DNA of 6,817 bases from a virus (taxonomy: Duplodnaviria > Heunggongvirae > Uroviricota > Caudoviricetes): the IMG/VR virus record IMGVR_UViG_3300009622_000013, one strand, 5' to 3'. Positions 1 through 6,817 of this stretch are shown here, in pieces. The position numbers and the translations under genes were made by a program. The first letter of the stretch is position 1. Every line of letters begins with the position of its first letter. The notes beneath the pieces were generated by a model. That model saw only the letters and a list, made by a program, of their open reading frames with translations, searched no databases and was not told where the DNA came from.

Positions 1-197
1 TATTTGTAGTATCTCTTTTTGGAATATCTCAATTTTATGTGTCATTTTTCGGGGAAGGATATAGAGATTTAAGCAAGCATTTATTTGGAATGTATTTTTC
101 GTTCGACCTTTGCTTATACATAACAGTCGTTTTTTTAATTTATAAAATAATTCAAAGAAATCAAGACAATAGCGATGTAAAGCACTAAGTTTAAATT

Positions 198-217
198 GCG
201 CGCCAATCATGGCGCGC
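198..217 (-). terminator. Candidate stem-loop just 3' of the minus-strand ORF stop; weak intrinsic terminator
   Basis: Perfect 8-bp GC-rich stem GCGCGCCA (198-205) / TGGCGCGC (210-217) with loop ATCA. On the minus strand it is followed by AATTTAAACTT, only a moderate U-tract. It lies 5 nt beyond the stop at 223-225. Confidence 0.3.
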
Positions 218-222
218 ACAAG

Positions 223-504
223 CTATAATACCAACCTAATTTCTCCTCCTCTTAGAGTGACTATATCTCCTGATAGAATTGCGGTATTGACTATCAAATG
301 CCCTGATTCGTTGTTTATTGTAATATCTCCTCTATCTGCAGACGATAACTTAAATGCATCATTGCCCACAACAAACCCCCTCCAGAACCAAGTGCTGATA
401 TTATCATCAACAGTGATAGATACATATACTAACTGATTATCGTTATAAGTGATTCCTGTCTTATACTTAACATAAGGACTTCCACTTTGATTCTCGATAG
501 ACAC
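223..504 (-). CDS. C-terminal fragment of an unassigned protein, possibly tail-fibre-like; no convincing start, likely a remnant
   Basis: The 93-aa minus-strand ORF reads like a real beta-rich protein (..GITYNDNQLVYVSITVDDN..GDITINNESGHLIVNTAILSGDIVTLRGGEI), whereas the overlapping plus-strand ORF 209..436 is low-complexity. It begins with a non-ATG codon at the junction with the tfaS fragment and is followed by the hairpin at 198-217. Confidence 0.3.
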   Translation of the reverse strand: MSIENQSGSPYVKYKTGITYNDNQLVYVSITVDDNISTWFWRGFVVGNDAFKLSSADRGDITINNESGHLIVNTAILSGDIVTLRGGEIRLVL

Positions 505-528
505 ATAACATCCAGGGGTTATGTTTGT

Positions 529-831
529 ATGCGTCCCGCGACTATCGCCCCATTAACGCCATACGATAAATGGGATGGTGAGAAATGGGTGACGGATACC
601 GAGGCACAGCATAGCGTCGCAGTAGATGCAGCAGAAGCACAGCGCCAGTCGCTGATTGATACTGCAATGGCTTCCATTAGTCTGATTCAACTGAAATTAC
701 AGGCTGGGCGGAAGCTGATGCAGGCAGAGACCTCCCGACTTAACACTGTGCTGGATTACATTGACGCGGTGACGGCAACAGATACCAGCACCGCGCCGGA
801 TGTCATCTGGCCTGAACTGCCGGAGGAGTAG
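529..831 (+). pseudogene. tfaS: Tail fibre assembly protein, N-terminally truncated fragment
   Basis: The C-terminal portion (..EAQHSVAVDAAEAQRQSLIDTAMASISLIQ..LDYIDAVTATDTSTAPDVIWPELPEE) matches the conserved C-terminal domain pattern of phage Tfa proteins, and is paralogous to the C-terminus of the convergent yfdK product. First ATG is at 529; the track ORF from 487 starts at TTG. The ~80 N-terminal residues of a full Tfa are missing. Confidence 0.6.
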
Positions 832-1243
832 GCCATTCAATATCTGGCGCACTGGAAGTATCGACCAGCTCCAGTGCGTCCAGATAATCCAGCCACAAAT
901 TATATTGCGCCAGTTCCTCACCTTTCAGACGACCAATAGCCGCTTTACCAGCCCATTGTTTACTGTTCATATAATCGTTGGCCTGATTAATCAATTGCTG
1001 CTTTTTCAGTTCGGCTGCAGCAATCTGTTCCTCATGTGTTGGTGGTGGAATTTCAGACCATGCAGGAAAACCATTTTCTCCAGCGATACGGATTTTTCCT
1101 TTCGGCGGTAATCCGGAAAACTCAATATACACTTGCTCATCAACTTCAACAGCATCATCTGGCCATGAGCCAGCTTGCGTGTAATCCTCTTTCATCTCCA
1201 AGGGATAGAAAGAGTTTGTAGTCGCGGAATATATGTAATTCAT
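803..1243 (-). CDS. yfdK: Phage tail fibre assembly protein (Tfa family), 146 aa
   Basis: ATG at 1241-1243 is preceded by GGAGTG on the minus strand. The protein ends ..LWLDYLDALELVDTSSAPDIEWPTPPAVQAR, the Tfa C-terminal signature. It sits immediately downstream of the tail-fibre fragment, the usual stf-tfa order. Length and sequence agree with my recollection of K-12 YfdK. Confidence 0.8.
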   Translation of the reverse strand: MNYIYSATTNSFYPLEMKEDYTQAGSWPDDAVEVDEQVYIEFSGLPPKGKIRIAGENGFPAWSEIPPPTHEEQIAAAELKKQQLINQANDYMNSKQWAGKAAIGRLKGEELAQYNLWLDYLDALELVDTSSAPDIEWPTPPAVQAR

Positions 1244-1269
1244 TTTTCACTCCATAAAGTTAAAAGAAA

Positions 1270-1992
1270 TTAACACCCTAATGCGAAAAATGAAGCACCG
1301 ATACCGGGTACGCCTGCTCTGGAAATAAATTTCACCGGGTCCTGGTTATAACCGGCACAAGCTATATAGCCAACATTTGCACTGCCGGGAGTGTAATCCT
1401 GAGTCGCAAATACCCGCAGACATCTATTCGGAAATGCAATCGGAAAATAGGTTACTGTGTCCTGAGACGTCAGCGGAACATCAATTGGCCCCCATTGAAT
1501 AATTAAACCGGATGGCAATTTTTGATATCCAGGAACTGAAGCAGAAAGCATAAAACTACCCATATCAGGTATCTGATTCGCCCCTGTCCCTACATTTCTT
1601 TTAGCCGCTTCTCCCAAACCAAGGTTTTCGAGAGCCTTTTGCACCGTGCCGTCCAATTTGATATCGCCAAACGGATTCTTGCGGCTTAACAGCAGCGCAC
1701 GAAGCGCGGTAAGCAGCTGGTCATGCCGCCCCTTCTCCAGGCTGGCACCGGAGGCCTCCACAACGCTGCAAAGCTCCTCCTGCAACATGTCAAAGTAGTC
1801 ATCATCCAGATCGGTGGCAGGCGTGCCGGTCTGGGGGTTACCACGGGTACGGGGGATTACCAAAGGCAGCACCTTTAAGCTCCGCAAGACGTTCTGACCA
1901 GTCATGCGCCAGCGCGTTGTCTTCCGCAGTGTAATACGCGGCACATTTGGCGTTATCACCATCAGTAAACAGATCCAGAACAAACGGGCCAA
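1270..1992 (-). pseudogene. yfdL: Tail fibre protein C-terminal fragment; the real coding part is probably about 1270-1840, with the upstream ORF portion overlapping yfdM out of frame
   Basis: The 240-aa ORF has a C-terminal ~190 aa that is tail-fibre-like (..[64 protein letters not shown]..). Its N-terminal ~50 codons lie over the yfdM 3' end in another frame and look non-native. It is followed 27 nt later by the tfa gene yfdK. Confidence 0.55.
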
Positions 1993-2113
1993 ACAGGGTG
2001 TTAATTCCCCAGAAAATGTTGTCCGGCGTGCGCCACTGATCGCCCACTTCCTTCAGTTCATGGGCTGGTTTGTTCCGCAGCTCCACCAGCGCCTGGCAAT
2101 ATTTATTACTCAT
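1838..2113 (-). CDS. yfdM: Truncated phage Dam-family DNA N6-adenine methyltransferase, N-terminal fragment ending just after the NPPY motif
   Basis: The product [91 protein letters not shown] carries the W-R-T-P .. NPPY pattern of phage Dam methylases but stops 2 residues after NPPY. The ATG at 2111-2113 overlaps the yfdN stop (TAATG). The track ORF starts 11 codons upstream at a non-ATG codon. Confidence 0.6.
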
Positions 2114-2607
2114 TAAGCCCCCACGTAATTCCCTGAGAGATACCACTCTTCACCTGATGCAGCCCGCTTACTGCTTTTCCGTAAACACCGTTCACGACGC
2201 GCCAGAAAATTGTTTCGTTCTGGCTGGGAGTGGCTTTCACGGAATGCCGCCATCCACACCGTTGCAGCACGACGGTATAAGCCCCTGGACTCCAGTTCTT
2301 CCGCCTGGCGGGTCAGGCACAAAATCACCCGCGGGTCGTTAGTGCCGACATAGAAATTGCGCACAGGTCTGGTTTCACGAACTGGTTGTGGTTCCGGATC
2401 CTGCGCTCTCTCAGTCAGGCGCGGGAAATGTCTGTGTGTATCTCCTTCACAACGGTGAGCCACACGCCCACTCTGACGTAACTTGCTTGCTGACTGCAGA
2501 ACGCGCTGCCGTGAGTAACCTGCAAAAGCATCCGCAATGTCTCCGGAAGTACAGCCCGGATGGGCTTCAATGAATTTCTGAACGTCATTCAAAAGACTCA
2601 TGCTCAC
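2113..2607 (-). CDS. yfdN: Prophage regulatory protein, PerC-like C-terminal region (recollection)
   Basis: A 164-aa ORF starting at GTG 2605-2607, which overlaps the yfdO stop as GTGA; an in-frame ATG lies 2 codons downstream. The C-terminal region (LCLTRQAEELESRGLYRRAATVWMAAFRESHSQPERNNFLARRERCLRKSS) resembles PerC-type activators. It is arranged like an operon with yfdO and yfdM. Confidence 0.7.
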   Translation of the reverse strand: MSMSLLNDVQKFIEAHPGCTSGDIADAFAGYSRQRVLQSASKLRQSGRVAHRCEGDTHRHFPRLTERAQDPEPQPVRETRPVRNFYVGTNDPRVILCLTRQAEELESRGLYRRAATVWMAAFRESHSQPERNNFLARRERCLRKSSKRAASGEEWYLSGNYVGA

Positions 2608-2972
2608 CCCCTGAATCCTGCCGGGATCTGGCTGTAGTCCACATTGTCGTAACTGGCTTTGAAGTACGGGTCTTCGCGTTTTTCTGTGTACGTGCTGACG
2701 GACGGCGATAAGCGCAGGGAAAGCTCATCCCATTTTTCCCGCAGCTTCGACGGGCTGAGCACGTTACGGCACCAGAACGGATCGCGGCTGACGCGGCTGT
2801 ACATCTCGCAGATTTGTTTGTGAGTACGACCATCCTGCACACACATCAGGCGAATTTCGTTTGCCCAGGCTGTCCAGTTCGGTTCTTTGGGACGAACCAC
2901 CTCGCCGTCACATTCGGCGGCCTGCTCGTACAGGGCGATGATTTTTTTCCAGAGCCACTGTGCGCAGGTCAA
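2604..2972 (-). CDS. yfdO: Phage replication protein O-like remnant, 122 aa (defective replication initiator)
   Basis: The 122-aa ORF MTCAQWLWKKIIALYEQAAECDGEVVRPKEPNWTAWANEIRLMCVQDGRTHKQICEMY.. matches my recollection of K-12 YfdO, annotated as a defective O-like protein. The iteron array lies directly upstream. Confidence 0.65.
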   Translation of the reverse strand: MTCAQWLWKKIIALYEQAAECDGEVVRPKEPNWTAWANEIRLMCVQDGRTHKQICEMYSRVSRDPFWCRNVLSPSKLREKWDELSLRLSPSVSTYTEKREDPYFKASYDNVDYSQIPAGFRG

Positions 2973-3329
2973 ATCATCCTGCGTTCCCCACTGGCGCTTT
3001 TTAGGGCTGAATACAACCGCATCAGGATGGCGAGTTAAAAAATCCTGTTCATCCGTCTGCGTGTCCGGTTGCGAAGCGTCCGGACGAGAAGGTTTTTTAT
3101 CTGACGGATCATGTTTTGATTTTACTGACGGATCCCCGCCAGATTCTGACGGGTGAAAACCCGATTTTTTGCCAGATTTCGACGCATCAAATTTTGACGG
3201 GTCAGATTTTGATGCGTCAGATTTTGACGGGTCAGAGTCTGACAGTTGAGAAAATGCCGCTGCCTGAAGCTTCGCAACGTTAAGCTGATAAACATTCGAC
3301 GCATTGCGGTTATGATGAGGAGCAGCAAA
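2973..3329. promoter_or_regulatory. Divergent intergenic control region between yfdO (minus) and yfdP (plus); contains the iteron array and presumably divergent promoters
   Basis: A 357-bp non-coding gap between divergently oriented genes. GAGGAG sits 8 nt before the yfdP ATG at 3330. Exact -35/-10 elements could not be assigned with confidence by eye. Confidence 0.4.
3171..3245. repeat. Five tandem 15-bp iterons (consensus GTCAGATTTTGAYGS) with degenerate copies upstream from about 3100; putative ori or operator repeats
   Basis: Units read directly in register: 3171 GCCAGATTTCGACGC, 3186 ATCAAATTTTGACGG, 3201 GTCAGATTTTGATGC, 3216 GTCAGATTTTGACGG, 3231 GTCAGAGTCTGACAG. The last has internal dyad symmetry (GTCAGA-G-TCTGAC). 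Further TGACGG-containing copies occur at 3102, 3126 and 3147. Confidence 0.6.
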
Positions 3330-3692
3330 ATGGCTAGCGAACGCAGTACTGATGTGCAGGCATTTATCGGGGAGCTGGACGGCGGCGTATTTGAAACCAA
3401 AATCGGCGCAGTTCTCAGTGAAGTCGCTTCCGGTGTGATGAACACGAAAACCAAAGGTAAGGTCTCACTCAACCTGGAAATCGAACCATTTGATGAGAAC
3501 CGTCTGAAAATCAAACACAAACTCTCATATGTTCGCCCGACTAACCGTGGGAAAATTTCCGAAGAAGACACCACCGAAACGCCGATGTATGTCAATCGCG
3601 GTGGTCGCCTGACTATTCTGCAGGAAGACCAGGGACAATTACTGACTCTTGCCGGTGAGCCTGACGGAAAACTCCGCGCAGCAGGTCATTAA
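3330..3692 (+). CDS. yfdP: Prophage protein of unknown function, 120 aa
   Basis: ATG at 3330 is preceded by GAGGAG. The product MASERSTDVQAFIGELDGGVFETKIGAVLSEV.. is protein-like. The track ORF from 3246 adds 28 low-complexity residues upstream with no ribosome binding site. Sequence matches my recollection of K-12 YfdP. Confidence 0.7.
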   Translation: MASERSTDVQAFIGELDGGVFETKIGAVLSEVASGVMNTKTKGKVSLNLEIEPFDENRLKIKHKLSYVRPTNRGKISEEDTTETPMYVNRGGRLTILQEDQGQLLTLAGEPDGKLRAAGH

Positions 3693-3757
3693 TATCATTC
3701 TTAATTAACTAATTATTTATCTCATCACTGAATATCTTAATATAGTGAGGACTTATT

Positions 3758-4582
3758 ATGTCTCAGAACTTAGACGCAACCGCAATTAATCAAATCCATG
3801 CCCTTATTTCTGCTCAGGGTGTTAATGAAATTATCAGTAAGATTGGTGCCGATGCTGTGGCATTGCCTGAGAATTTCCGCATTCATGATCTGGAAAAATT
3901 TAATTTAAATCGCTTCCGTTTCCGTGGTGCGCTTTCCACTGCCAGCATCGATGACTTTACCCGTTATTCTAAAGATCTTGCAGATGAAGGCACCCGCTGC
4001 TTTATCGATGCTGATAATATGCGTGCCGTCAGTGTGCTTAACCTGGGTACTATTGATGAACCAGGTCACGCAGATAACACCGCCACTCTCAAACTGAAAA
4101 AGACAGCACCGTTCTCTGCCCTGTTGTCTGTTAACGGCGAGCGTAACTCCCAGAAATCACTGGCAGAATGGATTGAAGACTGGGCCGACTACCTTGTGGG
4201 CTTTGATGCTAATGGTGACGCCATTCAGGCAACAAAAGCGGCTGCGGCAATCCGTAAAATCACGATTGAAGCAAACCAGACCGCTGATTTTGAAGATAAT
4301 GACTTCAGCGGCAAACGCTCCCTGATGGAATCTGTCGAAGCGAAGACCAAAGACATTATGCCAGTGGCATTTGAATTTAAATGCGTTCCGTTTGAAGGTC
4401 TGAAAGAACGTCCGTTTAAATTACGCCTCAGCATTATCACTGGCGATCGTCCTGTACTGGTTCTGCGCATTATTCAGCTGGAAGCGGTGCAGGAAGATAT
4501 GGCTAACGAATTTCGTGATCTGCTTGTTGAGAAATTCAAAGACAGCAAAGTAGAAACCTTTATTGGTACTTTCACCGCCTGA
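3758..4582 (+). CDS. yfdQ: Prophage protein YfdQ, 274 aa, uncharacterised (DUF-type)
   Basis: A 274-aa ORF with ATG at 3758 preceded by GTGAGGA. The product [53 protein letters not shown].. is recognised from memory as K-12 YfdQ. It is followed by a strong hairpin. Confidence 0.85.
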
Positions 4583-4594
4583 TTTCATTACTGC

Positions 4595-4620
4595 AAATGC
4601 CCCTGCGGGGGCATTTATGG
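4595..4620 (+). terminator. Candidate intrinsic terminator or attenuator downstream of yfdQ
   Basis: Perfect 9-bp stem AAATGCCCC (4595-4603) / GGGGCATTT (4608-4616) with loop TGCG, followed by ATGG. The 3' arm ends in UUU. It may act in both directions. Confidence 0.45.
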
Positions 4621-4709
4621 AAACGTAATTAACTCAATAATCACCGGATGGTGAGGGCTTCCTTTTACCCAAACTCAGCGCGGTGCAGCGCATATACGTG
4701 GAGAACAAA

Positions 4710-5246
4710 ATGTCATTTATTAAAACTTTTTCCGGGAAGCATTTTTATTATGACAAGATAAATAAAGACGACATCGTGATTAACGATATCGCGGTTTCCC
4801 TTTCAAATATCTGCCGCTTTGCCGGTCATCTTTCTCACTTCTACAGTGTCGCCCAACATGCGGTGCTTTGCAGCCAGCTGGTGCCGCAGGAATTTGCTTT
4901 TGAAGCATTAATGCATGATGCAACAGAAGCGTATTGCCAGGACATCCCCGCACCACTGAAACGCCTTCTTCCTGACTATAAACGGATGGAAGAAAAAATA
5001 GATGCAGTAATCCGTGAGAAATACGGGTTACCTCCTGTTATGAGCACGCCAGTGAAATATGCCGATCTCATTATGCTGGCAACCGAACGCCGTGATCTCG
5101 GGCTTGATGATGGCTCTTTCTGGCCTGTACTGGAAGGCATCCCGGCAACAGAGATGTTCAACGTGATTCCACTGGCACCGGGTCATGCCTACGGGATGTT
5201 TATGGAACGTTTTAACGATTTATCGGAGTTACGCAAATGCGCATGA
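4710..5246 (+). CDS. yfdR: HD-domain phosphohydrolase (5'-deoxynucleotidase family), 178 aa
   Basis: ATG at 4710 (MSFIKTF..) is preceded by GGAGA; the track ORF from 4683 starts at a non-ATG codon without a ribosome binding site. The HD-domain signature is present: H40, H43, then H69-D70 (codons 4914-4919, LMHDATEAY). The stop overlaps the yfdS start region. Confidence 0.8.
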   Translation: MSFIKTFSGKHFYYDKINKDDIVINDIAVSLSNICRFAGHLSHFYSVAQHAVLCSQLVPQEFAFEALMHDATEAYCQDIPAPLKRLLPDYKRMEEKIDAVIREKYGLPPVMSTPVKYADLIMLATERRDLGLDDGSFWPVLEGIPATEMFNVIPLAPGHAYGMFMERFNDLSELRKCA

Positions 5247-5599
5247 ATGTTTTCGAAATGGAAGGGTTTCTTCGCGGGAAATGTGTACCGCGAGATCTGA
5301 AAGTGAACGAAACAAATGCTGAGTACCTGGTACGTAAATTCGACGCGCTTGAAGCTAAATGTGCGGCACTGGAAAACAAAATAATACCAGTGTCAGCTGA
5401 ACTGCCACCAGCAAATGAAAGTGTTCTGTTATTTGATGCTAACGGAGAAGGCTGGCTGATTGGCTGGCGTTCTCTCTGGTACACCTGGGGACAAAAAGAA
5501 ACCGGAGAATGGCAGTGGACATTTCAGGTTGGGGACCTTGAAAACGTCAATATCACTCACTGGGCAGTAATGCCAAAAGCACCGGAGGCTGGAGCATAA
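5237..5599 (+). CDS. yfdS: Prophage protein of unknown function, 120 aa
   Basis: ATG at 5237 is preceded by GGAG and overlaps the yfdR 3' end (ATGCGCATGA); its TAA stop overlaps the yfdT ATG (TAATG at 5597-5601). Sequence MRMNVFEMEGFLRGKCVPRDLK.. matches my recollection of K-12 YfdS. Confidence 0.75.
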   Translation: MRMNVFEMEGFLRGKCVPRDLKVNETNAEYLVRKFDALEAKCAALENKIIPVSAELPPANESVLLFDANGEGWLIGWRSLWYTWGQKETGEWQWTFQVGDLENVNITHWAVMPKAPEAGA

Positions 5600-5904
5600 T
5601 GACCACATTTACCAATAAAGAACTGATTAAAGAAATCAAAGAACGAATCAGCAGCCTAGAGGTTCGAGACGATATTGAGCGCCGTGCTTATGAAATCGCA
5701 CTCGTATCTCTGGAAGTAGAGCCAGATGAACGCGAAGCCTATGAATTATTCATGGAAAAGCGTTTCGGTGACTTAGTAGATCGTCGGAGAGCAAAAAACG
5801 GCGATAACGAATACATGGCATGGGATATGACTCTCGGTTGGATCATCTGGCAGCAACGAGCTGGTATCCATTTTTCAACAATGTCACAACAAGAGGTGAA
5901 ATAA
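5599..5904 (+). CDS. yfdT: Prophage protein of unknown function, 101 aa
   Basis: ATG at 5599 is translationally coupled to yfdS. The product MTTFTNKELIKEIKERISSLEVRDDIERRAYEIALVSLEVEPDEREAYELFMEKRF.. is charged and helical. It is the last gene of the yfdPQRST block. Confidence 0.75.
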   Translation: MTTFTNKELIKEIKERISSLEVRDDIERRAYEIALVSLEVEPDEREAYELFMEKRFGDLVDRRRAKNGDNEYMAWDMTLGWIIWQQRAGIHFSTMSQQEVK

Positions 5905-5916
5905 TAGAGCCATACA

Positions 5917-5945
5917 GCCTCACACTCGATGAGGCCTGTCAGTTT
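5917..5945 (+). terminator. Weak candidate terminator hairpin downstream of yfdT
   Basis: Stem GCCTCA (5917-5922) / TGAGGC (5930-5935) with loop CACTCGA, followed by CTGTCAGTTTCTT. Short stem and interrupted U-tract. Confidence 0.25.
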
Positions 5946-6000
5946 CTTAAAATATCCTGATCTACCATCGCCGTCATAGAGCGTATTTTTATTACCTGAT

Positions 6001-6016
6001 TTGCAGGTTCGATTCC
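6001..6016 (+). other. Orphan tRNA T-arm-like fragment (TTGCAGGTTCGATTCC), not part of an intact tRNA
   Basis: Contains the canonical tRNA T-loop motif GGTTCGATTCC preceded by GCAGG. The complementary 3' T-stem strand and the acceptor stem are absent, and no cloverleaf can be drawn. By recollection it matches the T-arm of tRNA-Arg argW. Confidence 0.45.
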
Positions 6017-6035
6017 CTATTCGGAGATAGCACTC

Positions 6036-6236
6036 ATGCAACACGAACTACAGCCTGATTCACTGGTTGATTTGAAATTCATCATGGCTGATACTGGCTT
6101 TGGTAAAACCTTCATCTATGACCGGATTAAGTCAGGCGACCTGCCAAAAGCCAAAGTTATCCACGGGCGAGCAAGATGGTTATATCGTGACCATTGTGAA
6201 TTCAAAAATAAGCTCTTAAGCCGCGCCAATGGGTAA
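6036..6236 (+). CDS. torI: Excisionase-like recombination directionality factor / Tor response-regulator inhibitor, 66 aa
   Basis: ATG at 6036 is preceded by GGAG. The product MQHELQPDSLVDLKFIMADTGFGKTFIYDRIKSGDLPKAKVIHGRARWLYRDHCEFKNKLLSRANG is recognised from memory as TorI (AlpA/Xis-like winged helix). It lies next to the att core, as expected for a recombination directionality factor. Confidence 0.85.
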   Translation: MQHELQPDSLVDLKFIMADTGFGKTFIYDRIKSGDLPKAKVIHGRARWLYRDHCEFKNKLLSRANG

Positions 6237-6309
6237 AATAGCGGGTAAAATATTTCTCACATCTAAAAAACACCATTCCAATCAATCCCCTGCTGCTTCA
6301 AGTAGATGT

Positions 6310-6324
6310 CTGCAGGGGACACCA
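6310..6324 (+). other. Putative attR core: 15-nt copy of a tRNA 3' end (CTGCAGGGGACACCA) marking the prophage/host boundary
   Basis: The sequence ends in the acceptor-stem/ACCA-type terminus of a tRNA and by recollection equals the 3' end of argW tRNA-Arg. No upstream tRNA body is present, so it is a partial duplicate as expected at the att site distal to the integrase. It is flanked by torI (prophage) and dsdC (host). Confidence 0.6.
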
Positions 6325-6419
6325 TCCTTGTGTTTATCCCTAAAACCACATAAAAACCGTAAATTAAATTCGAACTAGCAGGCCGAATAAGGCACACCAG
6401 GAACTCGTGGTTTTATTCA

Positions 6420-6755
6420 TTATGAAGTGGTTTTTACCTGTTCTCTTAGCCAGATAATAAACGCTTCAATTTTTGGCCACTGCCTGCCCGGTAATGTGGT
6501 GATGTAATAATGCTGATGGCATTTCACCGTCATATCGCCAAACGGCGCGACGAGCTCACCACTGGCAAGCCTTTTTTGTACCAGGCGTTTTCTTCCCATC
6601 GCCACCCCAATATGATTCATCGCGGCAATAACAGCTAAATCAGAACGATCAAAGCCAATTCCAGAAGATGTCGGCAAATTAACCGCATAATGTTGCGCCC
6701 AACTATGCCATTCATCCGTACCGGAGTCGTTGCTCCATGCCTGTCTGTCATGGAG
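6420..6755 (-). CDS. dsdC: LysR-family transcriptional regulator, C-terminal part only (D-serine deaminase activator); upstream part replaced by a fold-back palindrome
   Basis: The minus-strand ORF ends ..HDRQAWSNDSGTDEWHSWAQHYAVNLPTSSGIGFDRSDLAVIAAMNHIGVAMGRKRLVQKRLASGELVAPFGDMTVKCHQHYYITTLPGRQWPKIEAFIIWLREQVKTTS, a LysR effector-domain C-terminus recognised as DsdC. The first 17 residues of the track ORF (MPFIRTGVVAPCLSVME) are encoded by the reverse-complement arm of the palindrome and are not native. Confidence 0.7.
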   Translation of the reverse strand, partial: LHDRQAWSNDSGTDEWHSWAQHYAVNLPTSSGIGFDRSDLAVIAAMNHIGVAMGRKRLVQKRLASGELVAPFGDMTVKCHQHYYITTLPGRQWPKIEAFIIWLREQVKTTS

Positions 6756-6817
6756 CTCCATGACAGACAGGCATGGAGCAACGACTCCGGTACGGATGAA
6801 TGGCATAGTTGGGCGCA
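6694..6817. repeat. Perfect 124-bp palindrome (62-bp arms, no spacer, centre between 6755 and 6756) running to the window end
   Basis: Bases 6756-6817 are the exact reverse complement of 6694-6755, checked block by block. The centre is GGAGCTCC. Confidence 0.95.

Follow-up and report, generated by a model that had tools for sequence, protein, structure and literature searches.

A perfect 124-bp palindrome at the end of a sequence derived from E. coli K-12 is best explained as a technical fold-back chimera within dsdC

The window, that is the whole stretch of 6,817 nt analysed here, ends in a perfect spacer-less palindrome in which a piece of dsdC is followed directly by its own inverted copy. 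Judged from sequence comparisons, this structure is very probably a technical fold-back (duplicated-inversion) chimera that ends a contig of E. coli K-12 laboratory-strain DNA, and not a feature of a chromosome. This explanation, which the initial annotation had put forward as the most economical one, is supported by the divergence from K-12 past the axis of the palindrome and by the absence of the junction from all independent collections searched. The elements of the window that matter for the argument are the following.

1..6756, plus strand: native K-12 segment, with the 3′ end of yfdI, the CPS-53 prophage from yfdK to yfdT, torI and the 3′ third of dsdC
6420..6755, minus strand: genuine 3′ portion of dsdC, codons 201-311 and the stop codon
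6694..6755, plus strand: left palindrome arm, dsdC sequence that is genuine and identical to K-12
6728..6760, no strand assigned: perfect inverted repeat of native K-12, CGTTGCTCCATG (6728-6739), a loop of 9 nt, and CATGGAGCAACG (6749-6760)
6755..6756, no strand assigned: junction, self-complementary GC common to both arms, a 2-nt microhomology
6756..6806, minus strand: 17 artefactual codons, MPFIRTGVVAPCLSVME, which supply the apparent ATG start
6756..6817, plus strand: right arm of the palindrome, reverse complement of 6694-6755, non-native from 6757 and reaching the last base of the window

The terminal 124 nt were returned by a repeat finder as a perfect inverted pair with arms of 62 nt each (6694-6755 and 6756-6817), 100% complementarity and a spacer of 0 nt. 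Direct string comparison confirmed the 62-nt arms, and the perfect palindrome claimed at this place from inspection of the sequence was therefore recovered by both approaches. Complementarity continues unbroken up to the last base of the window. Since the arm is stopped by the window end and not by a mismatch, 62 nt is a lower bound on the length of the inverted copy. The probability that arms of this length arise by chance is negligible (about 4^-62 per position). Folded as single-stranded DNA, the 124-mer is predicted to form a single unbroken hairpin of -84.7 kcal/mol, as compared with -18.4 ± 2.9 kcal/mol for shuffled sequences (z = -23). The junction reads GGAGCTCCATGAC in the window and creates a hexamer GAGCTC at positions 6753-6758 that is not native. 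The tail beyond the axis consists purely of the inverted copy of the preceding bases, and no adapter, vector, other locus or foreign sequence was found in it.

Comparison with native E. coli sequences located the breakpoint exactly. Positions 1-6756 of the window are 100.0% identical to K-12 (MG1655, C600, J53, ER1709 and others) in one ungapped piece, and all E. coli matches terminate at position 6756. From 6757 on, K-12 reads AACGTACAG, and the native sequence at the position of the right arm is AACGTACAGTG... Beyond the breakpoint K-12 reads AACGTACAGTGACAC..., whereas the window reads TCCATGACAGACAGG..., which is the reverse complement of the upstream bases. The native continuation of dsdC is unrelated to the window, which follows K-12 up to 6756 and then the same locus on the opposite strand, as is expected for a fold-back artefact. 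The initial annotation had predicted that a reference dsdC would diverge exactly at 6756. The turn-back was confirmed by this comparison; the position has to be corrected, since the first base unlike K-12 is 6757. The difference arises because the GC at 6755-6756 is self-complementary and belongs to both arms.

Several other properties of the native segment were recorded. The window starts inside yfdI, and its first 400 nt contain a local GC minimum of 23%. The left-end stretch is confined to 365 of the 5,426 complete genomes of E. coli, of which almost all are laboratory K-12 derivatives, so that the DNA is of laboratory-strain origin. A contig break induced by a repeat was ruled out at this end, the flanking K-12 DNA being single-copy. 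Short-read coverage tends to fall in AT-rich DNA of such composition, and a low-GC, single-copy left end fits a short, low-coverage contig of K-12 DNA. In the K-12 derivative ET12567 (NZ_CP045457.1, 2536656-2544749) the CPS-53 region carries an insertion of an IS4-like ISVsa5 element, which splits the match to the window into two pieces. A 15-nt unit, CAGATTTTGACGGGT, is repeated in tandem 4.3 times at 3173-3247, and an 18-nt inverted repeat is embedded in this array. The array is located just upstream of yfdP, in a pseudogene of the yfdO region described as 'helix-turn-helix domain-containing' (2604-3311, minus strand). It has the appearance of iterons or operator sites belonging to the defective prophage CPS-53. 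A Pfam search of the two ORF fragments of this pseudogene gave no match. A terminator-like hairpin, AAATGCCCC-TGCG-GGGGCATTT, follows yfdQ directly at 4595-4616.

The way in which the two arms were joined was evaluated by writing out the product expected from each candidate mechanism and comparing it with the 124 nt of the window. A head-to-head join at 6755|6755 matched 124 of the 124 positions and was the only model that reproduced the window. This join corresponds to a nascent strand that ends in ...GGAGC, re-pairs its terminal GC with the GC of a strand of the same sense and copies that strand backwards. Snap-back synthesis primed by the native 12-bp repeat, which places the axis at 6744, was rejected whether the 9-nt loop was kept (85/124) or flipped (80/124). 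This model covers hairpin-primed synthesis, cruciform-dumbbell intermediates, tandem-inversion-duplication junctions and the PDSM library artefact. Hairpin priming implies an axis at the centre of the repeat; the observed axis lies at 6755|6756, and both orientations of the loop are present in the window. A blunt head-to-head join at 6756|6756 was also rejected (73/124), as was an SpCas9-type break, the native sequence having no NGG 3 nt from either candidate cut on either strand. A protelomerase-type hairpin telomere of a linear replicon, which would call for a dedicated palindromic target and a gene for the protelomerase, was discarded as well: all 124 nt are dsdC sequence, and the genes of the window are the known ones of CPS-53, torI and dsdC.

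The non-native GAGCTC is a SacI site, and the palindrome could be taken for a cloning or ligation artefact in which two identical restriction fragments were joined head-to-head at such a site. This origin is exceedingly unlikely. The hexamer is merely GAG plus its own reverse complement, K-12 reads GGAGCAAC at the axis, where the symmetric part is restricted to 2 bp (GC), and the blunt join fails too. Since native DNA has no symmetric (palindromic) recognition site centred on the axis, these data refute a restriction-ligation event.

The fold-back axis falls 7 nt into the 3′ arm of the native inverted repeat, of which the window keeps positions 6728-6756. The hairpin formed by this repeat has a predicted energy of -13.9 kcal/mol (z = -4.6). 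In a 64.7-kb sample of K-12, we counted the perfect repeats with a stem of at least 12 bp and a loop of 3-20 nt; five were found, covering around 0.2% of the sample, as against 0.1 per 64.7 kb in shuffled sequence. The other four are intergenic terminators, and the dsdC repeat is the sole non-terminator of the class in these 64.7 kb. As such repeats cover so small a fraction of the sample, it is unlikely that the axis lies inside one by chance (post-hoc p of about 0.002). Only in Escherichia is the repeat complete (12/12), while 77 other enterobacterial orthologous loci keep 6 to 11 of the 12 pairs, without compensatory substitutions. On this basis the repeat was rejected as a conserved structure of DNA or RNA, and an Rfam search of the window gave no match. 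Because the repeat is perfect in Escherichia alone and degraded elsewhere without compensation, it is probably a coincidence of codon choice. Its capacity to form a hairpin probably made the site prone to breakage, stalling or switching, the pairing of the arms having another source. Given the failure of the snap-back models, the repeat would mark where the strand broke, stalled or switched, and not how the arms paired. The position of the axis in this rare native repeat is left unexplained by the simple priming models tested.

The initial annotation had named independent molecules carrying the same palindrome as evidence that would speak against an artefact, and the junction was accordingly searched for in several collections. 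The arm sequence was found in 2,702 of the 5,426 complete E. coli genomes, with a maximal coverage of the 124-mer of 51% per record. The two arms were adjacent in none of the 5,426, which include hundreds of K-12 derivatives; each match corresponds to one arm, in native dsdC. Searching the 124-mer in plasmid and phage collections yielded single-arm matches and no junction. A 32-nt probe spanning the axis had no exact match in the IMG/VR viral contigs, among the genomes of 185,579 species (one per species), or in the JGI metagenome contigs. The palindrome is thus absent from the complete E. coli genomes, plasmids, phages, viral contigs, species representatives and metagenome contigs searched, and this lack of reproduction in every independent collection is what a fold-back artefact predicts.

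Relatives of dsdC were also seen on records of other bacteria. The short contigs JAEWTL010000016.1 (2,676 bp, from a 'Bacillota bacterium' MAG) and JAWDXP010000072.1 (1,371 bp, from a 'Dysgonomonas' MAG) have a dsdC that is, respectively, 100% E. coli-like and Enterobacter-like. Both look like enterobacterial contamination of MAG bins. E. coli dsdC being known on small contaminant contigs in MAGs, this was counted in favour of an artefact at a contig end. The 1.1-Mb contig JAWQUI010000001.1, labelled Pseudomonas lundensis, carries a dsdC relative with 77% identity to E. coli DsdC. This relative groups with Serratia, its local sequence equals that of loci L082 and L083, and the record may be mislabelled or may hold a horizontally acquired dsdC relative.

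These searches bear directly on the possibility that the inverted duplication is genuine. A chromosomal fold-back inversion in a K-12 derivative, in which a break or a replication U-turn at the hairpin-prone dsdC site was sealed head-to-head, would inactivate dsdC, and the window would show only the first of two junctions. Such an event would be in keeping with a breakpoint inside a native perfect 12-bp inverted repeat, of a class so rare in K-12, and the data set no upper bound on the length of the arms. We nevertheless consider it improbable, because the junction occurs in none of the complete genomes, K-12 derivatives included, because the in vivo snap-back and cruciform-dumbbell routes predict a retained 9-nt loop and an axis that the window does not have, and because the palindrome halts exactly at the end of the sequence, as an assembler would leave it. 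The argument that SbcCD counter-selects long perfect palindromes, advanced in the initial annotation, points in the same direction and is not decisive, since lethality was shown for a palindrome of 460 bp and sbcC laboratory strains exist.

According to Azeroglu et al. 2014 (PMC4245961), SbcCD cuts a chromosomal perfect palindrome of 460 bp in E. coli on both sister chromosomes, which is lethal to the cell; AAV ITRs of around 145 bp prove unstable except where SbcC is lacking (PMC11754738). Both observations make a stable perfect palindrome of 124 bp or more unlikely in an ordinary K-12 strain. PMC4245961 also describes palindromes and inverted repeats as hotspots for breaks and inverted duplications, and palindromes can reportedly be maintained in laboratory strains lacking sbcC (Chalker et al. 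1988, as cited elsewhere). The palindrome would be real if a K-12 laboratory derivative, for instance an sbcC- or sbcD-deficient host, had a spacer-less inverted duplication that arose at the hairpin-prone dsdC repeat from a replication U-turn or a fusion of sister ends and was caught before remodelling; we regard this as quite improbable.

The length of the palindrome can be accounted for by the assembly of a chimeric read. When a walk over canonical k-mers enters a fold-back of any length, new k-mers are exhausted (k-1)/2 positions past the axis for odd k and k/2 positions for even k. The contig stops there because the assembler meets only k-mers that have already been used in reverse complement. 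The terminal palindrome produced by this walk is 30 nt long at k = 31, 124 nt at k = 124 or 125, 126 nt at k = 127 and 140 nt at k = 141. The palindrome of the window reaches its last base, and its length is the one that the walk gives at k = 124 or 125; one of these values may have been the assembly setting behind the 124-nt end. The upper limit of k in IDBA-UD is 124. The phrase 'maxk 124' co-occurs with IDBA in 13 published papers, indicating that the setting is in real use. Counting against the k-mer account, neither 124 nor 125 is a default in most common assemblers, and a lone overhanging chimeric read in an overlap assembler would give an identical appearance.

A fold-back generated in the assembly graph alone was ruled out, since the two strands share only 12 bp, which is below any usable assembler k. 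It follows that there must have been at least one physical chimeric read, save in the case of a hand-made sequence. An end of purely computational or constructed origin, in which an assembler or a post-processing step folded back without a chimeric molecule or a reverse complement was appended, would explain why the end of the palindrome coincides with the last base and why its length equals a possible k-mer size; it would also fit the lack of a source contig among the viral, genome and metagenome contigs searched. To turn back, a de Bruijn graph needs a shared (k-1)-mer, for which the native repeat of just 12 bp does not suffice, and the chance that a constructed end placed at random lands in a perfect inverted repeat of 12 bp is only about 0.2%. 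This origin is accordingly very unlikely.

On the preferred explanation, a chimera of technical origin, a molecule or read from an E. coli K-12 laboratory strain would have ended or switched strand in dsdC at 6755/6756; from there it would have run on along the complementary strand of this locus, with an overlap of only the 2-nt GC. The chimeric read or reads would then have become the last extension of the contig, the end of the window being presumably the contig end. At low coverage such a read may be the sole one to extend the end, so that it is not clipped as a tip. The step of origin would most likely be library preparation, sequencing or assembly. At the bench, candidate steps are a strand switch by a displacing polymerase, an end-repair fill-in or a concatenation of template and complement.

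Technical chimeras of related types have been described. The foldback reads of ONT and PacBio data (Heinz, Meyerson & Li 2026, PMC12870357), which their authors ascribe to library preparation, resemble the present junction in that the join is near-perfect and usually free of adapter. They differ in being whole reads that turn back close to their middle, whereas here 62 nt follow the axis in an assembled consensus. The 100% accuracy of this consensus points to a short-read or polished assembly. Inverted-repeat chimeras make up 0.18-7.33% in ONT ligation libraries (PMC13141652). After MDA of a single E. coli cell, more than 85% of the chimeras were inverted and were primed on complementarities of 2-21 nt (Lasken & Stockwell 2007, PMC1855051). 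The present case shares with them the E. coli DNA, the inverted junction and, as a candidate mechanism, a displaced 3′ end that primes on a strand of the same sense, and the 2-nt GC lies at the low end of their range. The MDA chimeras usually carry an intervening deletion, however, while the offset at the present junction is zero.

PDSM chimeras, which arise during library preparation, are concentrated where DNA has natural inverted repeats or palindromes (Chen et al. 2024, PMC10908179). As in the window, a strand is joined to its own inverted complement and the breakpoint lies at a natural repeat, here the 12-bp one. In PDSM the two arms of the natural repeat pair with each other, which predicts a loop-retaining product that mismatches the window; the site fits, therefore, but the pairing register does not. 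The engineered palindromes of E. coli (Azeroglu et al. 2014; Eykelenboom et al. 2008) are spacer-less, perfect and carried by K-12 DNA, as is the palindrome of the window. Those described there are deliberate lacZ constructs of 246-460 bp in controlled sbcCD strains. In contrast, the present palindrome consists of dsdC sequence only, has not been seen in other K-12 genomes and is located at a sequence terminus.

The effect of the fold-back on dsdC was then defined. The dsdC coding sequence of K-12 maps to the minus strand, at 6420-7355 in window coordinates. Its nucleotides 600 and 601 flank the axis, in agreement with the initial annotation, which had placed the axis within the coding sequence. 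The apparent ORF of the window comprises 128 amino acids and runs from 6806 to 6420 on the minus strand. Its first 17 codons come from the inverted copy, and the earlier claim that they are artefactual held: the peptide that they encode is not DsdC, and the native protein resumes at Leu201. Of the LysR substrate-binding domain, what remains of dsdC covers the C-terminal half, with a match confined to positions 114-208 of PF03466. An HTH_1 domain and a complete LysR_substrate domain are both present in full-length DsdC, whereas the window ORF has no HTH. Exact look-up of the chimeric ORF, in three plausible gene-call forms, returned no record in an index of 153 billion genes.

The terminal fold-back thus creates a false start codon and, with it, a false 128-aa 'DsdC' protein, which would pass gene callers and protein databases and could be mistaken for a disruption of dsdC or a structural variant. 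Phantom ORFs of this type can be removed by trimming terminal palindromes of approximately k in length off contigs. The biological importance of the palindrome itself is slight. If it were real, it would be one of the rare perfect palindromes of natural origin in E. coli and at the same time a null allele of dsdC, with the activator of D-serine deaminase knocked out.
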